Positions 27,773-43,645 of a stretch of 64,000 nucleotides of DNA are shown in pieces. Below the pieces are notes generated by a model. That model had not been told where the DNA came from. It ran no database searches and was given only the letters and a program-made list of their open reading frames with translations. Every line of letters begins with the position of its first letter. Positions within the stretch are counted from its first letter, which is position 1. The translations under genes and the position numbers were made by a program. Origin of the DNA: a virus; IMG/VR virus record IMGVR_UViG_3300025519_000001, positions 32,001 to 96,000 of that record; one strand, 5' to 3'.

Positions 27773-29088
27773 AAATCCACCACAAGAAAGCCCCTGTCTT
27801 TAGGCATGGGGATGAATTGTGGTAGGATAAGTTGGTAAAAACTTGATTTTCATAACTAAAATATGATATATTTATTATAAGAAAAAAGAACGGAGGTGAC
27901 ATTTGTGCAATCCATCACTGTAAAAATCAGATTTTTTCCTGATAACCCAAAGGTCATTAAAGAAGCATCACAAGAATATATCAATATTGTCAATAAATTA
28001 TCTCAACAAGCAGTAGAAAATAAAACTTTCCCTAAAATCACAACAAAAGATATTTCAACTTTTCTTCCATCTGCTGTTTGCAATCAAGCGATCAGAGACG
28101 CAAAATCTGTATATACCAAGTATAAAAAAACCAAAAAATTATCTGTTCTTAAGAAGCCAGTATATTATATTAATAATCAAAATTATACCATTCTTGATAA
28201 TGCAATTGCCTTTCCTATATCTATTAACGGAAAAACGAAAAAGACATATTTTAAAGCCATTGCAACAGATAGAGATATAGAATTAATCAAAAAATCCAAA
28301 CTTGGTCTTATGCGTATTGTAGAGAAATCAGGTAAATGGTATGCTCAAGTGTCCATTCAAATTCCAGAAGAAAAATTTAGTGGCGAAAATATCATGGGCA
28401 TTGATCTTGGCTTAAAAGTTCCTGCTGTTGCTGTAACATCAACAGGCAAGACAAGATTTTTTGGTAATGGTAGGCAAATGAAATATGTCAGGCGCAAATA
28501 TCAGTCTCGCAGAAGAAAATTGGGTAAACTTAAAAAACTTTCGGCCATCAAAAAATTAGGCGATAAAGAAAGCAGATGGATAAAAGACCAAAATCATAAA
28601 ATCAGTAGACAGATTGTGAATTATGCTATACAAGAAAATGCAAGTATGATAAAACTAGAAAAATTAGAAAATATTCGCAAGACGACAAGAACAAGTCGTA
28701 AAAACGCAAGGAATCTGCACAACTGGTCATTCTATCAACTGCAACAGTTTATCACATATAAGGCTAACTTGGCAGGAATTAAAGTTATAGAAGTTAATCC
28801 TGCATATACAAGTCAAACATGTCCTCGTTGTGGTAAACGAAATAAAGCAGATGATAGACGATATGAATGCTCATGTGGATTCAAGACACATAGAGATCGG
28901 GTTGGTGCAATAAACATCATGAACCAACCTGTGGCAGATGGTAACAGTCTGCCAGCCTAAGAACCTATATGGTCTGTCTTAGGATGGGCTGATGGCACAG
29001 CCCTTAACTTGGAGATTGCACGAAGTAGAAATGCATGAGTGCGCGAATCATCCAAGAATCCCTCGGATTTATCCGTGGGGAGTGTCAA
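27773..29088 (+). mobile_element. non-autonomous IS200/IS605 (tnpB-only) element inserted after TTAC
   Basis: Left-end hairpin CCCCTGTCTTTAGGCATGGGG, right end ...GGGAGTGTCAA; removal restores an ORF in frame. Confidence 0.85.
27896..28960 (+). CDS. tnpB: TnpB RNA-guided endonuclease (likely start GTG 27905)
   Basis: RuvC D (GIDLG), E (IKLEKL), D (HRDRVGAIN), Zn finger CPRCG/CSCG. Confidence 0.92.
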   Translation: MTFVQSITVKIRFFPDNPKVIKEASQEYINIVNKLSQQAVENKTFPKITTKDISTFLPSAVCNQAIRDAKSVYTKYKKTKKLSVLKKPVYYINNQNYTILDNAIAFPISINGKTKKTYFKAIATDRDIELIKKSKLGLMRIVEKSGKWYAQVSIQIPEEKFSGENIMGIDLGLKVPAVAVTSTGKTRFFGNGRQMKYVRRKYQSRRRKLGKLKKLSAIKKLGDKESRWIKDQNHKISRQIVNYAIQENASMIKLEKLENIRKTTRTSRKNARNLHNWSFYQLQQFITYKANLAGIKVIEVNPAYTSQTCPRCGKRNKADDRRYECSCGFKTHRDRVGAINIMNQPVADGNSLPA

Positions 29089-38802: not shown

Positions 38803-40310
38803 GTGAAAAATTTTATGAGAAAAAAAGATGAGCGGCTTAGTTATTTAGAAATTAATCATTTTTATTTCAATCGCGTCTTAGAGCCAAACGACAACTATTA
38901 CAATAAAAGAGTCGAGAAAGTATTGTTTCCCTATGACTTAGAAATGGCGCAACTTAAATGGGAATTAAAAAATAAAAAAAAGGAGATACACTAAATGAAT
39001 TATTCTAAAGAAACACTTAAGCTAATAAGTCTTTGCTGGAGTGGTGACGAACCAAGGAACACTAATGTAATCATTGGAACAACGTATTTCGATTTAGAAG
39101 GCAATAAATATAAAATAACGGAAGATACATATAAAGAATTGGTTCGGTATCAAAGCGAATCTTCAAGAAAATTCAAGATTATTCGAAATGGAAACGTCTT
39201 GTGGCTTCAAGGAATGGGTGCATGAAACCATGATTTTGTGAGGTGTTAAAAACTAATGGCAAAGAAAAAATATAGAATACAAAAGGCTCGAATTAAGGAA
39301 GCAGGGAAACTTCTTTCTATTATAACTGGAATTAATTTTGGAATCAGTGGTAGTAGTTATAAAAATGGCATATGGTATTGTAATTTTTATGCTGAACTAG
39401 ATGTTCCACATTGGTTTGATACAACTATTCGTGATACAGCAGAAGAAGAAATAAGGCCATATATTGAAAGGCAATACAAGAAAATTATTGATGCACTCAA
39501 AAGTAAATTTGGAGAAATCGAACATTCTCCATCAGAACATTGGTACAATTTCACTTATTATCTTCCTCCAGAAGGTGTTGCTCAACCTGAAATTTGGGAT
39601 CATGTTAATGGGGTTTTTCAAAAAATAAAAGATGCAAGACTACTAACAGAAAAAGAAATAGAAGAAAATTTGAAGCGATGGGAAGAAATTTGTCAAGATG
39701 AACCAAACAATAGATATTCTTTATTCCATTTAGAACATTTAAGATGGAGTAAAGATAACTGGAAAAAATATTTTAAGTTTGTTGGTGGTTCACCATTTAC
39801 AGATGAATTATTTGTTCAAATTCGTTATGGCGACATGATTAGAATGCGAGGAGAATTTTCGTTTAAAGCTTTTGGTGAATTTGATCTGTTGAAAGAAGAA
39901 TATATGTATTATATTTAAAAATAAAAAAGGGGATTGTATTTCAATTAATAAAAGGAGTAATATTTAAGATGTATTTCTACGAAAAGGAATTAGCGCGAAT
40001 TAAAAATGATTGGGAGAAAACACACCCTGAACGAGTAAAAATATTCTCTCAACAATATTTAGAAAATGGCTTTTCAGATGAAGACACGTGGAATTTAGAT
40101 ATTCATCTTGCAAAACTAATTTACCCTAGACTCGTTCGATTTAAAGAAATAGCTTGTGTTGTTATAGACTGGCCTTTGAATGAGATTATAGAAGCATTTA
40201 GATTAATTGTTGATGAAAATGTAGATTTCTTTAACGAACCCGAAAATTACGAAAAAATAAAGAAAGGACTTAAATTATTTGCAGAGTATTATTTTAAATT
40301 GTGGTGGTGA
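38803..40310 (+). CDS. four hypothetical genes (38803-38994, 38995-39225, 39256-39918, 39969-40310)
   Basis: ORF track and RBS. Confidence 0.55.
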
Positions 40311-40400
40311 TATAAAAAAGTATAGCTAAAAAGGGATGTAATTTAAAATTAAAATTCACCATAAAAGACACGTTTCATATGCTAATATTCAAACTTTAAA

Positions 40401-40443
40401 GTGCGAATCCCAAGCGAACATAAAAACTCTAGGAGATTCGCAC
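40401..40443 (+). promoter_or_regulatory. CRISPR leader inverted repeat (copy 1)
   Basis: GTGCGAATC-N25-GATTCGCAC; near-identical copy at 42500-42542. Confidence 0.7.
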
Positions 40444-40452
40444 CAAATTTAC

Positions 40453-40622
40453 AGGGCGACTCGGCGTCCAAAATCGAGAAAGCATGTGAATTTACATATG
40501 ATTTACCTATTTCACATGCACTCGATAACGTATCTATATTTTAAAATGTGCTTATAGATACGACCATTCTCGTTTTTATAGGAGAATGCACTTTGTGCGA
40601 ATAAATATGCACACTTTTTGCT
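40453..40622 (+). ncRNA. putative Cas12f tracrRNA 1
   Basis: Stem ATCGAG/CTCGAT, two further hairpins, anti-repeat CACTTTGTGCGAAT at 40589-40602; parallels 42560-42745. Confidence 0.7.
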
Positions 40623-40835
40623 GTTGCAATTCGCACATGCACATAAAGTGTGAGAAGGGAGACTAAGGCTAAAGTCTTTGCTAGGCTAGTTGCAATTCGC
40701 ACATGCACATAAAGTGTGAGAATGGGAGAATGTAGATCGTGACTCTGCCTTATAGTTGCAATTCGCACATGCACATAAAGTGTGAGCTAGATCGACTATA
40801 TATGCGGAGCTTAAAAATTATTGCAATTCGCACAT
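40623..40835 (+). CRISPR. CRISPR array: three identical 32-bp repeats GTTGCAATTCGCACATGCACATAAAGTGTGAG plus a partial fourth; spacers of 34, 34, 33 bp
   Basis: Repeats 40623-40654, 40689-40720, 40755-40786, partial 40820-40835. Confidence 0.95.
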
Positions 40836-40867
40836 ATATAATGTTAAAATAATGAGGGGTTTTATAT

Positions 40868-42478
40868 ATGCCTAAAAAAGAAAAAGATGATAATAAGATT
40901 GTGAAAATTGTAAAAGTAGAGATTGATAGGATTGTTGGAATAAAAGAAGATCATTTTAATGTTATAGCAAAAAAACTTCAAAGCGAATCTCTTGATATGC
41001 GAAATCAATTTATCGCAGAGTTATGGAAGTGGAATAATTTTGAAGATGACTATAAAACAAGATACTACTCTAATCCAGATACAAAGGAATATTTATTTAA
41101 TAAAAAGAAAGGGAGTCCATATGGATCAATAAGGGGGTATGCTGAGGACGTAGTGAAAGAAAATAAAATATCGTATTCTGGTATAATTAGTGCAAACACA
41201 AATAAAGCTCTTAGTAGATGGAATAAATTCTTAAAAGATCGCGAAAACTATAGAGAAGGAAAATATCCAGCAATACCATGTTTTACAAGACCAGAAATTC
41301 TATTTCGTGCTTCTGATACAGAGATAATTAAGAAAGATGCAAAATATGAATGCAAATTACCTTTACTTGGTAGAGATGGAGTTAAAATTGCTGATCTTCT
41401 AGTTAAAAAATATGAAGAAGAAAAACGCACTGAAAAACTAAGAAGAGAAGAATTAAAAAAAGAATATAAGAATCTTGAAGAAAAAGGCGTAGAAATAACC
41501 AAAGAAATTAAAGATAAACTGTGGATTAAAGTTAAAAATAAAATTAAAGAAAAGAGTGAAGAAGAACTTAAAAATGATGAACCGATTATCACCTCTAGTA
41601 GCTATCAAGCTATTTTGAAACTATCTGATACATATGATAATACAACAATCATAAACAGAATTATTAATGGCGAATATAAAATGGGTGAAAGCAGTTTACG
41701 AAAATTAAAAAACAAATGGATACTATTTATCACATACAGTTTTGAAAAGCAGTCAAAGGGGCTTGATCCAAATATAATTTTGGGTGTAGATATAGGAGTT
41801 AATGATCCAGCACATATGATAGTTTATGATTCCAATAATAAAAAATGGGGGAAAAAGAAATGGATTGATGGTAAAGAAATCGAAGCGTTTCGTAAGAAAC
41901 GTGATGTTATGAAGAGATCAATACAAAAACAAGCTGCTTATTGTGGAGAAGGAAGAAGAGGACATGGGAGGAAAACAAGAATGAATGCGGTTGAAAAGAT
42001 TGATGGAATGATTAAGAGATTTAAAAATACATGCAACCATAAATATTCTAGATTTATTGTTGATTTTGCTTTAAAAAACAATTGTGGAGTAATTCAGATG
42101 GAAAACTTATCAGGAATTGCTGATGGAGAAAAGAAAGCAACATTCTTGGGTGATTGGACTTTTTATGATTTGCAACAAAAAATAAAATATAAAGCTGATG
42201 AAGTTGGAATTAAAGTTATATTTATTAAACCAAATCACACGTCTGCAAGGTGTAGTAATTGTGGTTTCATTCATGATAATAAATTAAAAGATATTTGGAG
42301 ACCAGAAACAAAACAATTCAAATGTATGAAGTGTGACTATGGACATAGGCGATTTGTCCACGCAGATGATAATGCAGCTAGGAATATTTCGCTTCCAGAT
42401 ATCGAAAATATTATCGAAGAACAACTAGACCTCCAAAACAAAGAAGCAAAACATGCATTAAAGTATATTGCAGAATAA
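40868..42478 (+). CDS. cas12f: Cas12f1 (type V-F) RNA-guided nuclease, 536 aa
   Basis: Colinear with AsCas12f1 as recalled (GHGRK, NHKYSRFIVD, WTFYDLQQKI.YKA); RuvC D (GVDIG), E (QMENL), D (HADDNAARNI); Zn finger CSNC/CMKC; adjacent CRISPR array. Confidence 0.9.
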   Translation: MPKKEKDDNKIVKIVKVEIDRIVGIKEDHFNVIAKKLQSESLDMRNQFIAELWKWNNFEDDYKTRYYSNPDTKEYLFNKKKGSPYGSIRGYAEDVVKENKISYSGIISANTNKALSRWNKFLKDRENYREGKYPAIPCFTRPEILFRASDTEIIKKDAKYECKLPLLGRDGVKIADLLVKKYEEEKRTEKLRREELKKEYKNLEEKGVEITKEIKDKLWIKVKNKIKEKSEEELKNDEPIITSSSYQAILKLSDTYDNTTIINRIINGEYKMGESSLRKLKNKWILFITYSFEKQSKGLDPNIILGVDIGVNDPAHMIVYDSNNKKWGKKKWIDGKEIEAFRKKRDVMKRSIQKQAAYCGEGRRGHGRKTRMNAVEKIDGMIKRFKNTCNHKYSRFIVDFALKNNCGVIQMENLSGIADGEKKATFLGDWTFYDLQQKIKYKADEVGIKVIFIKPNHTSARCSNCGFIHDNKLKDIWRPETKQFKCMKCDYGHRRFVHADDNAARNISLPDIENIIEEQLDLQNKEAKHALKYIAE

Positions 42479-42499
42479 ACTTTTTATACATTCTCTCTG

Positions 42500-42542
42500 G
42501 TGCGAATCCCAAGTTCACATAAAATCCCTAGAAGATTCGCAC
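42500..42542 (+). promoter_or_regulatory. CRISPR leader inverted repeat (copy 2)
   Basis: GTGCGAATC-N25-GATTCGCAC. Confidence 0.7.
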
Positions 42543-42559
42543 TTCTAATAAACATTAAG

Positions 42560-42745
42560 GGGCGACTCGGTAGAATGGAACATCTTAGTCAGTCATCCGT
42601 CCTAAATCGAGATAGTGCGGTTATACATATTTAACTTAACCGTTCACACTCGATAAGGTATCCCGAAAGGGTGAAACCCTACTCACAAAATCCGAGTAGG
42701 CACTTCATACAGAATATTTATGTATATTTATTCACACTTTCCGCA
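42560..42745 (+). ncRNA. putative Cas12f tracrRNA 2
   Basis: CTCGATAAGGTATCCCGAAAGGGTGAAACCCTACTCACAAAATCCGAGTAGGCACTTCATAC resembles the AsCas12f1 tracrRNA core; anti-repeat at 42701-42710. Confidence 0.75.
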
Positions 42746-42777
42746 GTTGCAATTTATATGTACGTATGAAGTGTGAG
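42746..42777 (+). CRISPR. single variant repeat GTTGCAATTTATATGTACGTATGAAGTGTGAG followed by a putative guide
   Basis: 32 bp, same first 9 and last 9 nt as array repeat, divergent centre. Confidence 0.8.
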
Positions 42778-43250
42778 AAAATACTAGATTAAGTCTTGTT
42801 ATGAAATTAGCTAAAGATATTACTTCGGCTCTGATTGAGCGATTCCCCCTAGAGTATGAAAAAGAAAATATTAAAATAAAAAATATTAAAGATAAAGATT
42901 TGGTTAAACGAATTAAAAAGAAAGGGTTAAGCGTAGAGTTGATCACAAAATAAAACATGAAAGATGCATTTCATTAAATGATGTGATGAAGCTTGAGAAT
43001 AAAAGTTATTGTTACAATTGAACTATTAAAATAAAAAATATCAAGATAATTCGAGAGGAGTATAAACAAAATGGATAAATACTCTCACTTAGACAAGGAA
43101 TATCTCGAATACTTAAAGGAGGGCTACTCTCAAAGATACATAGATCCAGACGATCCTTGGTTTACGGACTATGAACTTGAAGATAAGTACCTAGACGGAT
43201 ATGGCTTTGAAAATAAAAATAAAATAATACATAAAGGAGAGTAAAATAAA

Positions 43251-43645
43251 ATGGATTTGGGGTTAAAAAAGGCGGAAGACACGAACGCTGGATTTCGTTT
43301 GCCCTAAAAAAAGCAAAATACAGTAAAGTTCCACACTACAAACACTGTGCTGTTGTAATCAAGGGTGGAAGGCCAATTAGTATAGGAATTAATAAAACAA
43401 AAGCGGGATGTCTGGGAGATCCAATTTATTCTTTCCGCCAATGGCACAGTGAATTTGATGCCCTTTGTAACCTTGATGAGTCTCAAATTAAAAATGCTAT
43501 CTTGTATGTCGCAGGATGGACAAAGGGAGGTAATATTGCAAAATCCAAGCCATGCCCTCATTGTCAGGAGTATTTAAAAAAATTACCGTTAAAATCTATC
43601 GTATATTCAATGCCAGATGGAAGCTATGAAGAAATGGTTATATAA
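43251..43645 (+). CDS. cytidine/dCMP deaminase-family protein requiring a -1 frameshift (or frameshifted pseudogene)
   Basis: HSE (WHSEFDA) and PCxxC (KPCPHC) in the -1 frame relative to ATG 43251; A AAA AAG at 43265-43271. Confidence 0.7.

Follow-up and report, generated by a model that had tools for sequence, protein, structure and literature searches.

An apparently composite leader, with type I-C-like ends and a nested tracrRNA, ahead of a phage-borne Cas12f array

How does a CRISPR array come by its spacers when the genome that carries it encodes none of the proteins that would insert them? The question is raised by a cas12f-like gene and its short array in a 64,000-nucleotide stretch of phage DNA, hereafter the window, which comprises bases 32001-96000 of the 154,759-bp IMG/VR virus record IMGVR_UViG_3300025519_000001. 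An earlier note, made from the letters of the window, had reported that it holds no adaptation genes. Searches with the Pfam models for Cas1, Cas2, and Cas4 agree with this, and they were equally empty over the whole virus record, where the proposal made in the note was open to contradiction. The phage, being without Cas1, Cas2, and Cas4, thus lacks the linked cas3-cas5-cas8c-cas7-cas4-cas1-cas2 genes of type I-C arrays, and no adaptation genes were found within 8 kb of the homologues in three related loci (L009, L011, and L012). This is not unusual in itself, since Karvelis et al. (2020, PMC7229846) describe V-U3 loci as having no adaptation proteins. The source of the spacers in such V-U3/Cas12f1 loci, which include that of AsCas12f used in genome editing, is not explained in the literature searched.

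The explanation favored here has two parts. Positions 40401-40622 very probably form a composite leader, in which two ends homologous to those of type I-C leaders enclose a Cas12f trans-activating CRISPR RNA (tracrRNA) of ~150 nt, and type I-C Cas4-Cas1-Cas2 would act on this leader in trans. Taken as a whole, this combination is given somewhat better than an even chance of being the right explanation.

The distal end of the leader is a hairpin. This hairpin, the leader end TTTTTGCT and 32-bp repeats beginning with GTTGCA had been pointed out in the earlier note, and all are found where it placed them. When 40380-40654 was compared to plasmids using BLAST, the matches were two plasmids of Paenibacillus, together with Ruminococcus albus pRUMAL01. 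The corresponding hairpin of the Paenibacillus plasmids is situated ~150 nt ahead of arrays with classic type I-C repeats, and the array of one of them, pART37, adjoins a complete cas3-cas5c-cas8c-cas7c-cas4-cas1c-cas2 operon. In pRUMAL01 a scaffold of the Cas12f type comes after the hairpin, together with five repeats of 32 nt that are related to those of the window. A cas12f homologue is encoded 12 kb from this hairpin locus, and no Cas1 was found on the plasmid.

The motif used to scan for further hairpins describes a 42-nt form with 20 specified bases, while the copies in the window are 43 nt long, so the matches are a subset of the family. The contigs with the motif number five among viral and at least 120 among metagenome sequences, which makes at least 125 hits where about one is expected by chance (the analysis' own estimate, for collections whose sizes are not given). 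An I-C-type first repeat follows in 102 of the 125 loci fetched (100 using a stricter repeat definition), with a period of 64-71 nt and a distance from hairpin to first repeat of mostly 112-128 nt. In 98 of these loci cas2 ends a few nucleotides ahead of the hairpin; cas1c is present in 94, cas4 in 68, and cas8c in 41, and the hairpin almost always begins 3-10 nt past the cas2 gene of a cas3-cas5-cas8c-cas7-cas4-cas1-cas2 operon. The hairpin is thus a boundary element that comes after the last I-C cas gene and opens the leader. The phage has only two copies of it according to a genome-wide check, one in each of two homologous units: unit A ahead of cas12f and unit B downstream of it. The unit B copy begins 21 nt past the cas12f stop codon, and its position at the distal end of a leader directly after the last cas gene mirrors that of the hairpin after cas2 in the I-C loci. 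The repeat geometry is also alike, with 32-nt repeats in both systems and a period of 66 in the window, which falls within the range of the I-C loci.

The proximal end of the leader leads to the same comparison. I-C leaders end, for example, in ...GTGCATTTTTGCT or ...GCACTTTTCCGCT and abut a repeat beginning with GTCGC, while unit A ends in ...GCACACTTTTTGCT and unit B in ...CACACTTTCCGCA, both abutting GTTGCA. When the last 20 nt were aligned, anchored at the end, with 23 distinct I-C leader ends, and 3,998 phage 20-mers preceding GT served as background, unit A obtained a score of 11 (empirical p = 0.0005) and unit B a p-value of 0.026. A weight matrix with a fixed register places the junction only among the top 1% of scores, since the motif shifts by 1-2 nt. 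The alignment to I-C leaders that the earlier note had proposed as a check has accordingly turned out in its favor, both for the hairpins of the Paenibacillus plasmids and for the junction. A terminator scan further showed that 40594-40613 and the junction together form a terminator-like hairpin followed by a T-run. Two tandem junction-like motifs are seen within 40585-40621, one being the anti-repeat (about 40585-40598), the other the end of the leader (40606-40621). They have the form ATGCAC...TTT..TGC in common, and each is complementary to the repeat at its 3' end. This hints that the anti-repeat may have arisen by duplication of the leader end.

Between these two ends lies a structured scaffold. 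The alignment of nine scaffolds gave 18 consensus pairs, 13 of which display compensatory double changes, and the anti-repeat near the 3' end of the scaffold pairs with the 3' half of its cognate repeat. Repeat and anti-repeat co-vary in units A and B and in the related loci L005 and L006. A cross-matrix of scaffold-repeat duplex energies is not diagonal because the repeats are too alike, and only register-specific compensatory changes were therefore used. Rfam gave no match over 39900-43300. Since the scaffold pairs show compensatory changes and the anti-repeat co-varies with the repeat, 40454-40602 is a predicted tracrRNA gene. The earlier note had placed a tracrRNA between the hairpin and the first repeat, so that a single stretch would hold both the ends of an I-C-type leader and an RNA scaffold, and this arrangement is what the co-variation points to. 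When a 282-nt stretch was folded, its z-score relative to shuffled sequences was -5.65. Units A and B are homologous over their full length, and have the same series of stems with compensatory changes between them. The features of the locus are listed in Table 1.

Table 1. Positions in the window of the elements of the cas12f locus and what each assignment is based on.
Feature	Position	Strand	Basis or remark
Candidate extended -10 promoter, TG-n-TAATAT	40380-40388	+	Reading of the sequence; no -35; predicted start of transcription ~6 nt ahead of hairpin A
Hairpin A, 43-nt two-helix stem-loop with 9-bp outer stem	40401-40443	+	Sequence, folding, homologues
tracrRNA scaffold A (stems 40454-40469, 40473-40526, 40529-40562, 40565-40588; anti-repeat 40588-40602)	40454-40602	+	Alignment of nine scaffolds
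Leader-repeat junction motif ending in TTTTTGCT (40615-40622)	40603-40622	+	End-anchored alignment
CRISPR array, unit A	40623-40836	+	Repeat/spacer reading of the sequence
Repeats of unit A	R1 40623-40654, R2 40689-40720, R3 40755-40786, degenerate R4 40821-40836	+	Sequence
Spacers of unit A	S1 40655-40688, S2 40721-40754, S3 40787-40820	+	Sequence
cas12f-like gene P0001, 536 aa, type V-F1/former V-U3 kind	40868-42478	+	Structure-relative and profile matches
Hairpin B, second copy, starting 21 nt past the cas12f stop codon	42500-42542	+	Homology to hairpin A
tracrRNA scaffold B (anti-repeat 42701-42710; junction motif 42733-42745, without T-run)	42559-42745	+	Homology to unit A
Single variant repeat, unit B	42746-42777	+	Followed by flanking DNA, no second repeat

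A genome-wide check found unit A to be the only array in the phage. Its repeats have a period of exactly 66, and the degenerate last repeat ends 32 nt ahead of the cas12f start codon. The earlier note had given the spacers as 33-34 bp. The larger figure is correct, but none of the spacers is 33 bp, as all three are 34 bp; they are mutually unrelated. The same note had proposed a likeness to Bacillota type I-C systems. This likeness stands for the hairpin and for the leader end, as well as for the 32/34 geometry, but does not extend to the sequence of the repeat. Searches of the phage, of GenBank phages and of IMG/VR gave no targets for S1-S3, and searches with the array spacers of L009 and L136 gave no protospacers either. 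Within 40821-40850, the degenerate terminal repeat supplies a -35-like TTGCAA followed 18 nt downstream by a TG-extended -10, and the last repeat may thus double as the promoter of cas12f.

The protein encoded by the gene behind the array, P0001, has AsCas12f as its best solved relative (8j12, 7wju, and 8dzj; E about 1e-66, with a span of 1e-63 to 4e-66 given for its chains). It scores 134 bits with the NCBIfam model guided_TnpB, for which the cut-off is 100, and exceeds the cut-off of Pfam Cas12f1-like_TNB. With NCBIfam CRISPR_Cas12f2 it obtains 97 bits versus a cut-off of 450, this being a model of Cas12f2 and not of Cas12f1. The match between Cas12f and LaTranC (PDB 9jfo) is marginal (E about 0.002). 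D308, E412 and the zinc finger residues C462/C465/C486/C489 are invariant across nine homologues; D500, which falls in the RuvC-III motif judging from the P0001 sequence and its alignment to AsCas12f, is not invariant among homologues. P0001 aligns to AsCas12f in two segments, 10-124 and 259-520, and ~130 extra residues (about 125-258), a Lys/Glu-rich stretch included, are situated between them. The features by which V-F1/V-U3 Cas12f1 systems are recognized, namely a compact TnpB-like effector, an adjacent array and a tracrRNA with an anti-repeat, are all present here, the tracrRNA as a prediction, and by its effector, its putative tracrRNA and the lack of an adaptation module the system is assigned to this group.

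A search for related loci with the Cas12f protein as query gave no viral relative. Homologues with 44-52% protein identity are encoded in L004, L005, and L006-L008, all in phage-like contexts and with the same unit of hairpin, scaffold and repeat either upstream or downstream of the gene, and scans revealed additional examples of this unit in L018, L033, L061, L110, and L136. The only near-identical relative (98% protein identity) is L003, a contig of 1,957 bp, of which 1-47 and 1659-1957 are the two end segments; a near-identical relative with a readable array was not found. The contig begins within the degenerate R4 and stops exactly at the last base of the unit B repeat; the assembly may break at these points since the sequence beyond them varies in the sample.

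How the locus would work can be outlined from these elements. Transcription would start just ahead of the hairpin and continue through the tracrRNA into the array. The candidate promoter given in Table 1, having no -35, was not listed in a scan for consensus promoters, and L061 has a full consensus promoter at the same position before its hairpin. The terminator-like hairpin and the T-run before repeat 1 would release a free tracrRNA, while read-through would yield a natural single-guide RNA with the anti-repeat paired in cis with repeat 1, a pairing that is also present in the minimum-energy fold. Cas12f would then employ the three guides, presumably against competing mobile elements. As long as the phage is resident in its host, the Cas4-Cas1-Cas2 of a host type I-C system would insert spacers at the junction between leader and repeat 1. 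The phage is probably temperate, since it encodes a serine integrase, and for this reason and because it has no cas1, cas2, or cas4 it would depend on the type I-C system of the host for new guides. Both type I and type V systems read the protospacer adjacent motif (PAM) on the side of the upstream repeat, and spacers acquired by a type I-C system would therefore be correctly oriented for Cas12f.

Signs of exchange are found among related phages. The IMG/VR phage contigs L022 and L026 are 98.7% identical over 2.67 kb, this leader included, while L022 has six spacers and L026 two, none of them in common, and no match to Cas1 was found in either contig. Other related phages have from one to eight spacers behind such leaders, wholly different in content and of a uniform length of 33-35 nt. 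The mini-arrays of L022 (2470-2990) and L026 (7299-7900, on the reverse strand) lie behind the hairpin leader and just past a fragment of a TnpB-like gene, and L026 has a second array with 36-nt repeats beside a Cas12f/TnpB-like gene. The nearest named homologues of the serine integrase come from Bacillus, Paenibacillus, and Peribacillus, and in Paenibacillus the hairpin occurs in its 43-nt form at type I-C loci. Acquisition of new spacers through the I-C module of the host in trans is thus favored by the I-C leader ends, the lengths of repeats and spacers, the orientation of the spacers, the kinship of the integrase, the varied spacers of the relatives and the turnover seen between L022 and L026, and it appears a shade more probable than improbable.

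Several results weigh against this acquisition step. The repeat of unit A has only its length of 32 and its first bases, GTYGC, in common with the I-C repeat; it lacks both the I-C palindrome and the 3' handle ...ATTGAAA(T/C), and as the handle is missing the I-C integrase might not accept it. Arrays with repeats of this family were found in none of 185,579 species-representative genomes, where the repeat pattern gave only three single hits, which is about the level of chance by the analysis' own estimate, and a scan of IMG/VR for the repeat pattern gave no relative. Between hairpin and repeat, unit A has 179 nt and unit B 203 nt, compared to ~112-128 nt in the I-C loci, the difference being due to the inserted tracrRNA. 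No protospacers were found whose flanks could be set against TTC, the PAM of type I-C. The host is placed among the Bacillales but not in a genus. The arrays of L022 and L026 have I-C-type repeats, and these contigs are 74% and 63% complete. Finally, an identical one-spacer array occurs in three samples (L006, L007, and L008), so array turnover is not rapid.

Part of this evidence would also fit descent without continued acquisition. V-U3 arrays might descend from I-C arrays and have kept the leader ends for expression, the hairpin serving as an RNA boundary or stabilizing element and the junction as a terminator or anti-repeat-like site, in arrays that are static and changed by recombination only. 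The hairpin always lies past the end of a gene, be it cas2 in the I-C loci, cas12f in unit B, or the open reading frame (ORF) 39969-40310 in unit A. Its inner helix co-varies among 47 distinct copies, and at one variable outer pair (pair 6) G-T is seen while A-C never is. This suggests that the hairpin would act single-stranded, most likely as RNA, which fits a role in transcript boundary or stability at least as well as that of a signal for DNA integration. The junction overlaps the terminator-like site and has complementarity to the repeat's 3' end, the arrays are tiny (three spacers in the phage and one each in L004, L005, and L006), the same array recurs in L006-L008, and the repeat is not I-C-like. 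On the other hand, a relic would hardly be expected to have relatives whose spacers differ wholly in content and number (one to eight) while being held strictly to 33-35 nt, a sizing typical of an integrase, or to keep the junction motif at the exact leader-repeat boundary in both systems. The replacement of spacers behind the hairpin leader in L022 and L026, where no Cas1 was detected, also speaks for acquisition. Inheritance of a leader that no longer takes part in adaptation is therefore seen as possible but unlikely. It is very hard, by comparison, to take the hairpin for no more than stem 1 of the tracrRNA of Cas12f, resembling I-C leaders by coincidence. Units A and B as well as L004, L005, L006, L136, and L061 do have it at the scaffold's 5' end, and it is probably part of the same transcript, but about 100 loci have the hairpin together with I-C cas genes and neither Cas12f nor a scaffold, it comes after the scaffold in L009 and L068, at an I-C-like distance from the array, and the cultured Alicyclobacillus phage MMB025 has scaffolds and arrays without any hairpin. 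The stem sequence of the hairpin is also far more conserved than the co-varying tracrRNA stems. Given its occurrence in I-C loci without Cas12f, the order of elements in L009 and L068 and its absence from MMB025, the hairpin is judged to lie outside the predicted tracrRNA proper, and the stem 1 reading is contradicted by the distribution among I-C loci.

A TnpB-derived element, whose omega-RNA-like guides are taken from flanking DNA for homing and not acquired in the manner of CRISPR, is the remaining alternative, and it too is improbable. In its favor, flanking phage DNA comes directly after the single repeat of unit B, guided_TnpB is among the models that the protein matches, and a Lysinibacillus prophage homologue is preceded by three tandem units of scaffold plus single guide. 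Unit A, however, repeats regularly every 66 bp and has three spacers unrelated to one another, neither TnpA nor transposon ends were found, and the closest solved relative of the protein is a CRISPR Cas12f. Unit B itself can be read either as an empty array, consisting of leader and one repeat, or as an omega-RNA-like fused guide; in the latter case the guide could be taken from the flank. In the region 42746-42953, this would-be guide contains the start of a 50-codon ORF (42801-42953) that has no obvious ribosome-binding site.

Compared to known systems, the locus resembles the V-F1 (former V-U3) Cas12f1 systems of Clostridia and Bacilli, such as AsCas12f1, in its miniature TnpB-like nuclease with an intact RuvC triad and a zinc finger, and in having a tracrRNA beside a short array and no cas1, cas2, or cas4. 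It differs from them in being phage-borne, in the extra residues of its 536-aa effector, in the tracrRNA that appears to be nested in an I-C-type leader, and in the second unit of leader, tracrRNA and repeat past the gene. With the I-C leader of Paenibacillus sp. 37 pART37 (NZ_CP043762.1) it shares the boundary hairpin after the last cas gene, an end of the form ...TTTT(T/C)(G/C)GC(T/C) abutting GTYGC, 32-nt repeats and spacers of ~34 nt. In contrast to pART37, it has no I-C cas genes, the body and the 3' end of its repeat are unrelated, a tracrRNA of ~150 nt takes the place of the middle of the leader, and the hairpin is 179 instead of ~120 nt from repeat 1. Judged by its repeat sequence, spacing and cas genes the array is accordingly not classed as type I-C, although it has I-C-like leader ends. 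In its long structured scaffold RNA, which is fused or adjacent to a guide beside the 3' end of a nuclease gene (unit B), it is similar to TnpB omega-RNA and TranC, but it differs from these in having a true spacer array and a separate anti-repeat, and in lacking a transposase and transposon ends.

Phage Cas12 systems without Cas1-Cas2 include CasPhi and others from huge phages. For virus-borne mini-CRISPR arrays (Medvedeva et al., 2019, PMC6858448) a role in conflicts of one virus with another and a dependence on the machinery of the host have been proposed, and like these the present array is short, situated on a viral genome and without adaptation genes. The archaeal mini-arrays copy the host repeats and use host effectors, while in this phage the effector and the tracrRNA are its own and the leader ends alone are copied. 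Adaptation in trans is itself established for other pairs: two preprints report it for plasmid-borne type IV-A3 systems using the host type I-E (bioRxiv 10.1101/2023.06.23.546257) and for type VI-B using II-C (bioRxiv 10.1101/2020.02.20.957498). The cases are alike in that a locus without an adaptation module carries leader signals of a co-resident system of another type. The pair would here be V-F and I-C, the acceptor is on a phage and the repeats are not those of the donor. In the literature searched no description was found of a V-F array whose leader is of the I-C kind and encloses a tracrRNA, nor of an I-C leader hairpin or of a link between V-U3 and I-C.

It is a more tentative suggestion, thought rather doubtful at present, that V-U3-type Cas12f arrays of Bacillota are, as a class and irrespective of a chromosomal, plasmid or phage location, satellites of I-C adaptation. 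The hairpin and the junction would then be read by I-C Cas4-Cas1-Cas2 or by a host factor, and the nested tracrRNA would put each new spacer beside the anti-repeat as a ready-made single guide, so that the newest guide is given priority. The leader signature common to both systems offers a concrete, testable answer to where V-U3 spacers come from, pointing to a particular donor machinery and to two short elements, of DNA or RNA, that are open to mutation. If the favored explanation holds, a phage can join its own effector and tracrRNA to the insertion signals of a host system of the other class. The comparison has also singled out a widespread I-C leader hairpin past cas2, present in about 100 loci, for which no function is described in the literature searched.

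Some of the related loci have arrangements of their own. Of the more distant phage homologues, L009 (7070-7960 and 11420-12030) has two Cas12f-like genes, each with its own array of five to eight repeats, while L012 (7660-8000 and 9268-9560) has scaffold and array on both sides of the gene. In the Lysinibacillus prophage (L011, 7300-7960) the three tandem units lie upstream of a 455-aa homologue and each consists of a short scaffold, one repeat-like segment and one guide. This resembles a row of natural single guides more than it does a repeat-spacer array. Phage MMB025 (L016, 1200-1850) encodes a 447-aa Cas12f-like protein annotated as a transposase; of the two tandem units of tracrRNA plus mini-array upstream of this gene, one alone is annotated as CRISPR. 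Directly before the hairpin in several viral and metagenome loci a short stem containing GGTTCAAC is seen, which resembles the T-arm of a tRNA (L022 about 2445-2468; L023 about 1130-1150 and 1690-1712; L088 about 425-446).

The virus record is estimated to be 96% complete and has a G+C content of 33.6%. The genes of the window are those of a large tailed phage and encode a DnaB-like helicase, a RecJ-like exonuclease, a ribonucleotide reductase, an RNA ligase, a DNA polymerase, the serine integrase, and baseplate proteins. Genes flanking the cas12f locus are common to L009 and the window, and the locus therefore sits in a variable island of related phages. A tRNA-sized stretch of 73 nt outside the window (phage genome 14302-14374; L021 4102-4174) is 98.6% identical to Paenibacillus plasmid pART37, a weak hint as to the clade of the host. 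A second, smaller TnpB-like ORF is found at 27896-28960 of the window; its 354-aa product is 33% identical to the RuvC half of Cas12f (E 2e-19).

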